This document shows, one piece after another, positions 49,632-49,658 of a stretch of 64,000 nt of DNA. Each line of letters opens with the position of its first letter. The stretch's first letter is position 1. The position numbers and the translations under genes are program-made. The stretch covers positions 190-64,189 of the forward strand of contig CALUQS010000038.1 of assembly GCA_944322975.1 (NCBI GenBank), written 5' to 3'. This stretch comes from Candidatus Gastranaerophilales bacterium (GTDB taxonomy: Bacteria; Cyanobacteriota; Vampirovibrionia; Gastranaerophilales; Gastranaerophilaceae). Under the pieces are notes generated by a model that saw only the letters and a program-made list of their open reading frames with translations, was not told where the DNA came from and did not search any database.

Positions 49632-49658
49632 TAGTCGGCATATTTTTTAAAAACTTTA
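49632..49658 (-). promoter_or_regulatory. Sigma-28 (FliA/SigD)-type promoter candidate
   Basis: The minus strand reads TAAA-gtttttaaaaaatat-GCCGACTA. Exact 15-nt spacer and 6/8 match to GCCGATAA. The -10 element lies ~45 nt upstream of the ATG at 49587. Confidence 0.45.

Follow-up and report, generated by a model that had tools for sequence, protein, structure and literature searches.

A probable sigma-28-type promoter heads an uncharacterised regulon of lineage-specific proteins in gut Gastranaerophilales

Promoters recognised by sigma-28 of Escherichia coli have the consensus TAAAGTTT-n11-GCCGATAA, and the functional aer promoter of the same organism reads TAAAGATA-n11-GCCGACAT, with a -10 element of the GCCGAC type (PMC2859248). 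Activator-dependent sigma-28 promoters also have a precedent, in that CRP acts at aer and trg (PMC2859248). The present analysis concerns a site of this kind, designated P1, in a 64-kb stretch of contig CALUQS010000038.1 from a Candidatus Gastranaerophilales bacterium; this whole stretch is referred to as the window. P1 lies on the minus strand at positions 49658-49632 and reads TAAAGTTT-N11-GCCGACTA, upstream of a gene for a 339-amino acid (aa) protein of an uncharacterised Gastranaerophilales family (gene A; 48568..49587, minus strand), to which no Pfam or NCBIfam family could be assigned. The probability that 49658-49632 on the minus strand is functional as a promoter read by an alternative, sigma-28-type (FliA/SigD/WhiG) sigma factor was put at approximately 80%, on the strength of sequence comparison. 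The promoter class is a known one that has not been described previously in this lineage, and P1 heads an uncharacterised regulon of lineage-specific proteins.

The class 3 promoters of E. coli and Salmonella, among them fliC, tar, aer and trg, share with P1 the same two octamers at a spacing of 11 nucleotides (nt), and the GCCGAC variant of the -10 element at P1 is that of E. coli aer (PMC2859248). Like aer and trg, P1 has a candidate regulator site upstream, which is a CRP site in E. coli and here a TGTAA(C) repeat that is not a CRP site. P1 differs from these promoters in its host, a gut melainabacterium, and in the gene it would drive, which is not recognisably flagellar. Furthermore, the 11-nt spacer of the E. 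coli consensus contrasts with a spacer of 12 nt in most Gastranaerophilales relatives. The hag gene of Bacillus subtilis, which depends on SigD, resembles gene A in being a single, highly conserved gene of structural type that has a promoter of the sigma-28 type, a strong ribosome-binding site within a short leader, and a terminator at its end, whereas the product of gene A lacks the domains of flagellin. The hag leader contains CsrA sites, of which the leaders of six related loci (L073, L076, L079, L074, L042 and L061) are reminiscent, since in these CACAAGGA is accompanied by a ribosome-binding site that contains GGA and, in some cases, by an extra hairpin. The leader in the window differs from hag in lacking the first GGA motif, and the sampled loci yielded neither CsrA nor FliW. 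Sigma factors of the FliA family also transcribe lineage-specific genes unrelated to motility in hosts that have no working flagellum, as exemplified by sigma-28 of Chlamydia, which acts on the late gene hctB, and by WhiG of Streptomyces, which acts in sporulation. These regulons and organisms are unrelated to Gastranaerophilales, where the sigma factor lies beside flhB and genes of the export apparatus and rod have been retained.

Read directly on the minus strand, the region upstream of gene A has the order cc-TAAAGTTT-TTAAAAAATAT-GCCGACTA-tataagtagatatgcaaattaaaaaactataAGGAGtattagca-ATG. The -35 octamer TAAAGTTT (49651..49658) matches the E. coli consensus at 8/8 positions, the spacer TTAAAAAATAT between the octamers (49640..49650; 11 nt) has the length of the consensus spacer, and the -10 octamer GCCGACTA (49632..49639) matches GCCGATAA at 6/8 positions with the GCCGA core intact. 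P1 therefore agrees with the E. coli sigma-28 consensus at 14/16 positions with exact spacing. In the shorter form of the motif, TAAA (49658-49655) is separated from GCCGACTA (49639-49632) by a gap of 15 nt (49654-49640). The ATG of gene A is at 49587, and the distance between the end of the -10 box and the start codon is therefore 44 nt. An initial annotation of the window, made from the sequence alone, had reported this site, and its coordinates, sequence and 15-nt spacing all proved exact when the minus strand was read again; the sigma-28 match itself had been understated, the -35 side being the complete octamer TAAAGTTT and not just TAAA. From the geometry of sigma-28 promoters, transcription from P1 would be predicted to start at approximately 49624-49626, in agreement with the start at 49620-49625 anticipated in that annotation. 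The predicted 5' leader of approximately 37 nt (49588..49626, minus strand) would contain a conserved AGATATGCAAA and the ribosome-binding site AAGGAG, and is unstructured, with a folding energy of -1.5 kcal/mol.

Gene A forms a transcription unit with recognisable boundaries. The gene upstream is ilvC (49821..50849), which is followed by an intrinsic terminator (49770..49796, minus strand) consisting of a 10-bp stem and a run of T residues; gene A therefore needs a promoter of its own. Downstream of gene A, a terminator hairpin (48515..48553, minus strand; -19.8 kcal/mol, z = -4.9) is followed by the U-rich UCUUUAUUU, and gene A is therefore monocistronic.

Considered as a single match, P1 is not significant, and its significance derives from comparison with relatives. 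The pattern TAAA-N15-GCCGANNA has one match in the window where 0.25 are expected, and at least one match was obtained in 24 of 100 shuffled sequences. A total of 20 window sites have two or fewer mismatches to the 12-base consensus, as against approximately 10 expected. The set used for comparison was comprised of 80 loci from species-representative genomes and two metagenome contigs (1.39 Mb), with nearly all of the loci coming from metagenome-assembled genomes of Gastranaerophilales. The region within 150 nt upstream of genes of the gene A family was searched for the motif TAAAG[AT][AT][ATG]-N11-12-[GAT][CT]CG[AT]NNN, which was found ahead of 72/85 first or solo family genes, against an expectation of 0.0077 per 150 nt, and ahead of only 3/28 second (B-type) paralogs. 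Enrichment of the motif upstream of family members, which the initial annotation had put forward as a test, was observed in these loci. Matches of equal quality at a background frequency, which according to the same annotation would have refuted the site, did not occur, because high-scoring matches in the 1.39 Mb were almost entirely confined to positions before family genes, a small-gene operon described below and a few other uncharacterised genes.

A weight matrix trained on 67 unique sites of relatives, from which the window was excluded, assigned P1 a score of 23.8 bits, the highest in the window when both strands were scanned (128 kb). In simulated windows 0.045 matches reached 20 bits or more, and the highest value in 200 simulations was 23.4. 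Within the 67 sites, positions 1, 2 and 5 of the -10 element and positions 6-8 of the -35 element were strongly conserved in spite of being left free by the search pattern; TAAAG was fixed by the search, and T was present at -35 positions 6-8 in 53-59 of the sites. The spacer carried 0.13-0.56 bits per position, with the exception of a T directly before GCCGA, and its length was 12 nt in 54/67 sites and 11 nt in 13/67. The motif was positioned 23-85 nt ahead of start codons in relatives, where the median distance from the end of the -10 box was 37 nt, compared to the 44 nt of the window.

The boxes, their spacing and their distance from the start codon were maintained among Gastranaerophilales whose family proteins are approximately 40% identical, while the spacer and flanking sequences diverged. 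In clades where the flanks could no longer be aligned the boxes were still present, as the variants GCCGTAAA and GTCGATAT, and in the closest orthologs (L001, L002 and L004) the -10 octamer was identical to GCCGACTA. Alignment of 14 orthologous upstream regions yielded islands of invariance amid divergent sequence. These included CTAAAGTT in the -35 element, TGCCGA in the -10 element, AGATATG where the leader is predicted to begin and AAGGAGTAT, in addition to the TGTAA repeat and a distal block, TTGAC(T)..CATTAAAT.

A candidate for the sigma factor was present in relatives. In three loci (L074, L042 and L061) a sigma factor of 220 aa is encoded directly downstream of flhB, which was identified by TIGR00328 (E = 1e-64) and possesses the NPTH motif; in L074 the sigma gene occupies positions 568-1230. 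The top NCBIfam match of the candidate is FliA_WhiG (TIGR02479), over its full length (2-223 of 224; E = 2.5e-20). Identity to E. coli FliA is approximately 23-26%, and when the candidate was aligned with that protein and with SigD of B. subtilis, R84, W88 and the Ser-Arg of region 4.2 were seen to be kept. Judged by its sequence and position, the candidate is a divergent member of the FliA family in the classic fliA location. On two long contigs its neighbourhood consists of FlhB together with FlgE/F/G-D1-like, FliK-like and FliJ genes. The candidate has 3699 homologs, and the best 120 of the 3699 are all 85-94% identical. The family proteins of the three sigma-carrying loci are just 41% identical, approximately, to the product of gene A in the window.

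When FliA, SigD, flagellin, CsrA, FliW, FlgM and FliD were used as tblastn queries against the window and the 1.39 Mb, the matches were limited to three loci with the flhB-linked sigma, two loci with FliS and an RpoD-like sigma. Flagellin, CsrA, FliW and FlgM were not detected with these queries in the same sequences. We infer that an flhB-linked sigma is present in this genome also and that it reads the P1 motif, an interpretation supported by purifying selection on both boxes in the window and in L001-L008. A search of the accessible literature found no mention of FliA together with Melainabacteria.

The contigs of L074, L042 and L061 also carry a family gene approximately 9 kb from the sigma gene; this linkage, 9 kb in L074, is not claimed to be functional, the intervening genes being housekeeping genes. 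The window contains a 5'-nucleotidase-like gene (21528-23159, minus strand), and a gene with the same domain directly follows the flhB-sigma pair in other genomes. In the window the gene upstream of it encodes a YhdP/AsmA-like protein of 1198 aa, and the flhB-sigma synteny is therefore not kept.

Under the proposed mechanism, RNA polymerase carrying a sigma factor of the sigma-28 type would bind TAAAGTTT as the -35 element and GCCGACTA as the -10 element, 11 nt apart, and would begin transcription near 49624-49626. The product would be a message with a short unstructured leader and the strong AAGGAG ribosome-binding site, encoding gene A alone and ending at the strong terminator. The likely reader is the 220-aa FliA/WhiG-like protein encoded directly after flhB in relatives. 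A second site, at 46374-46348, would be served by this sigma as well, for a small-gene operon that includes a mini paralog of 107 aa, as would other lineage-specific genes elsewhere in the order. An additional regulator probably binds the TGTAA(C) repeats, which lie at a constant helical phase upstream of each promoter.

A number of observations weigh against this interpretation. The -10 box of P1 has two mismatches to the consensus, and the spacer is 11 nt in the window as opposed to 12 nt in the nearest orthologs. Neither a sigma factor nor a flagellar gene was detected in the 64-kb window by Pfam scanning of the larger reading frames or by tblastn, so that their presence in this genome has to be deduced from relatives. 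The candidate sigma scores 73.2 bits, below the curated TIGR02479 cut-off of 189.6, and when aligned to E. coli FliA it has N at D81 and M or L at R91, with lysines nearby. D81, R84 and R91 of E. coli FliA are reportedly, following work by Koo and colleagues in 2009, determinants of -10 recognition. Lastly, a conserved sigma-70-like element 70-100 nt further upstream could, from its sequence, also drive gene A.

An unlikely alternative holds that the conserved two-box motif serves a sigma factor other than the flhB-linked protein, for example one of group 3 or of the extracytoplasmic function type, or that it represents a bipartite site for a transcription factor and not a promoter. The divergence of the candidate sigma, its score below the family cut-off and the changes at 2/3 of the -10 recognition residues would be in keeping with such a reader; moreover, the DNA covered was a small fraction of each genome, allowing for other sigma factors, and no sigma-28 motif preceded the few recognisable flagellar genes that were sampled. 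Against this, both boxes and their spacing fit sigma-28, and no other known class of sigma factor uses TAAAG-N15/16-GCCGA. The location of the motif 23-85 nt before start codons and the absence of constraint on the spacer are promoter-like properties, and FliA/WhiG is the best full-length match of the sole alternative sigma that was found.

The sigma-70-like element mentioned above, TTGACT-16-TAAATT (49729..49756, minus strand), agrees with the consensus at 9/12 positions and is a possible second promoter (P2) that may act as a tandem housekeeping promoter of gene A. That gene A is transcribed mainly from this distal element, leaving the sigma-28-like site auxiliary or vestigial in this genome, was considered distinctly improbable. 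In its favour, all 14 orthologous regions keep TTGA and TTA of the element, paralog B is preceded by a near-identical element and by no other promoter-like block, and P1 combines a spacer one base shorter than that of its nearest orthologs with a -10 box that has two mismatches. However, the sigma-28 boxes are kept in clades far more distant than the 14 genomes that were compared for the distal element, spacers of 11 and 12 nt both recur at conserved sites, and GCCGAC occurs in a working sigma-28 promoter of E. coli (PMC2859248); nor are two promoters mutually exclusive. A functionless chance resemblance in AT-rich intergenic DNA, which the expectation of 0.25 per window, the 24/100 shuffles and the 20 two-mismatch matches might suggest, is hardly credible and was effectively refuted by the comparison, given retention of the motif at the same position in 72/85 orthologous or solo genes against 0.0077 expected and the top score of P1 on a matrix built without the window.

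The TGTAA(C) repeats probably constitute the binding site of an additional regulator, as suggested by their sequence and placement. The repeat or palindrome TTGTAACAGTTTTGTTACAA (49674..49693, minus strand) starts 35 nt upstream of the TAAAG of P1 and represents a candidate regulator site, and a second palindrome, TTGTAAATTTTTATTACAA (46401..46419, minus strand), is found 45 nt ahead of the second sigma-28-type site. Across clades the distance from the start of the element to TAAAG is 34-35 nt for A-type promoters and 45 nt for those of the small genes, a difference of one helical turn. The element accompanied 86/189 relaxed sigma-28-like sites, where approximately 0.08 would be expected per 70 nt.

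Among the 4627 homologs of the gene A product, none bears a functional name, and the few that are named by organism belong to Candidatus Gastranaerophilales or are obvious mislabels. Within the family, approximately 60 N-terminal and 80 C-terminal residues are nearly invariant and the middle is hypervariable. An AlphaFold2 model of the protein (predicted local distance difference test score 81.8) consists of a helix at residues 2-47, a beta-rich middle and a helix at residues 264-338. No Pfam match was obtained at E <= 1, Flagellin_N (PF00669) and Flagellin_C (PF00700) included, there was no NCBIfam match, and a profile search of PDB sequences returned no match. Foldseek found nothing for the model at E <= 0.001; its weak top matches were flagellin and filament-complex chains, with template modelling scores of 0.1-0.17 and E >= 2e-3, and the similarity to a flagellin fold is not significant. 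Homology to flagellin was rejected at the level of sequence, the hhalign probability against a small flagellin alignment being 0.45%.

Flagellin and the gene A product are similar in layout, with conserved N- and C-terminal helices, a hypervariable middle and a monocistronic gene of the sigma-28-driven kind, but flagellin has a multi-helix D0/D1 core, in contrast to the single helix at each end of the gene A product. As far as sequence and model can indicate, the layout of the protein resembles that of flagellin and homology is not supported. The description of gene A as a filament subunit in the initial annotation is consequently not established, as no homology to flagellin could be detected.

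Melainabacteria are uncultured, non-photosynthetic relatives of cyanobacteria, and a complete flagellum is missing from most of their gut members. According to Di Rienzi et al., flagellar genes occur in Melainabacteria, and MEL.A1 has no filament, cap, junction or L/P rings; Soo et al. found complete flagellar sets in just 3/9 Gastranaerophilales genomes. In four columns of the supplementary table of Soo et al., which were assigned to Gastranaerophilales by inference from the prefixes of gene identifiers, FlhA, FlhB, FliP, FliR, FliI, FliJ, FliE and FlgB/C/F/G are present, and FliC, FliD, FlgE/K/L/H/I, FliF/G/M/N and MotA/B are absent. The literature is split on the motility of gut Gastranaerophilales because these gene sets are incomplete. 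The proposal that gene A belongs to a sigma-28 regulon of late motility genes therefore stands in part: the sigma-28-type promoter is upheld by the conserved boxes, whereas late motility is doubtful because the published tables give an export apparatus and rod without motor, hook, junction, cap or filament.

The relatives sampled here retain FlhB, FliP/Q, a FliN-like protein and FliJ, as well as FliS in some clades, and one gene cluster encodes a FliN-like protein, FliO, FliP and FliQ. Beyond the published export gate, ATPase and rod, the additional components were thus FliK-like and FliN-like proteins, joined in some clades by FliS and a FliT-like protein. FliS (PF02561, E = 6e-40) is encoded in L020 and L021 approximately 8 kb from the family cluster. 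Elsewhere, fliS stands in the order flaG-like, fliS, fliT-like and a cation-efflux gene, and no flagellin, FliD or family gene was found beside those fliS neighbourhoods. Homologs of FliS number only 108, and FliS is therefore not a universal partner of the gene A family, nor universal in the order.

A tentative and rather doubtful extension of these findings is that the helical-hairpin proteins, namely the A-type protein of 339 aa, the mini paralog of 107 aa and a protein of 632 aa found in one relative, might form a new superfamily, expressed by means of the highly conserved FliA-like sigma, and be exported substrates of a repurposed flagellar remnant that has neither motor nor filament. If this were the case, the substrates could possibly build an appendage not made of flagellin or act as secreted factors, and P1 would be the equivalent of a class 3 switch in a repurposed flagellar secretion system. 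A conserved sigma-28-type regulon of lineage-specific, uncharacterised proteins offers a handle on the purpose for which flagellar genes and a sigma factor have been retained, and names candidate output genes of that sigma. The motif also has a use as an annotation tool, since genome scans across the order pick out the regulon.

Paralog B (325 aa; 47357..48334, minus strand), adjacent to gene A, has no sigma-28 motif. It is preceded by a sigma-70-like block, GTGACA-16-TAAATT (48371..48398, minus strand), with a TATAAT further upstream (48434-48439, minus strand). The B-type genes of relatives have in common a TTGACA...ATTAAAT block, with the spacing GTGACA/TTGACA-16-TAAATT. As B possesses a sigma-70-like block and lacks a sigma-28 site, the adjacent paralogs are wired to different sigma factors. 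A gene for a Gly/Ser-rich protein of 283 aa with hydrophobic, glycine-rich stretches (46500..47351, minus strand) begins 5 nt after B and keeps the same position in relatives; no family could be assigned to its product by Pfam scanning.

The second sigma-28-type site, TAAAGAAA-N11-ACCGATAA (46348..46374, minus strand), lies between the Gly/Ser-rich gene and the small-gene operon, approximately 165 nt upstream of the latter. This operon comprises a 90-aa gene with a TTG start (45912..46184, minus strand) followed by the gene for the 107-aa mini paralog (45564..45887, minus strand), whose C-terminal helix matches the gene A family with an hhalign probability of 87%. On the matrix derived from family genes the second site is weak (13.9 bits). 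Its position is conserved in orthologs, where it frequently takes the form of a perfect TAAAGTTT-N11-GCCGATAA. The operon leader of approximately 160 nt contains the conserved blocks TATTAAGAAATATTAA and TGTTTTTAT..TGTAGGT and, a short way downstream of the second site, a stable hairpin without a U tract (46295-46329, minus strand; -14.5 kcal/mol, z = -3.8).

Further genes lie behind sigma-28-type sites in relatives. In L076 one of these encodes the 632-aa protein, which has the N- and C-terminal helices of the family, and others encode HExxH proteins of 604 and 627 aa and a family of 272 aa; no Pfam family was found for the 604-aa, 627-aa or 272-aa proteins. In L001, L003 and L004 the 272-aa gene (1913..2731 in L001), with its own sigma-28-type site, is located between an acetyltransferase gene and a 480-aa gene. 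The corresponding gap in the window is just 40 nt (52838-52877), and this member of the regulon is therefore missing there.

A Pfam scan of the larger reading frames of the window identified two-component proteins and a PilB-like ATPase in addition to housekeeping genes, and an Rfam scan found a tRNA and nothing else. The ATPase is a secretion ATPase of the PilB/MshE type (15494-16888, plus strand), and type IV pilus-type machinery is therefore present there; a hybrid histidine kinase/response regulator is encoded at 12989-15103 on the plus strand.

In L087 (2322..2594, minus strand), a contig that also carries FliS, the sigma-28-type site TAAAGTTT-N12-ACCGACTA was observed ahead of genes for proteins of 69 and 790 aa. 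Both proteins begin with a ..(K/N)FNPF.. motif, and from their upstream sequence the two genes are further candidate members of the regulon.

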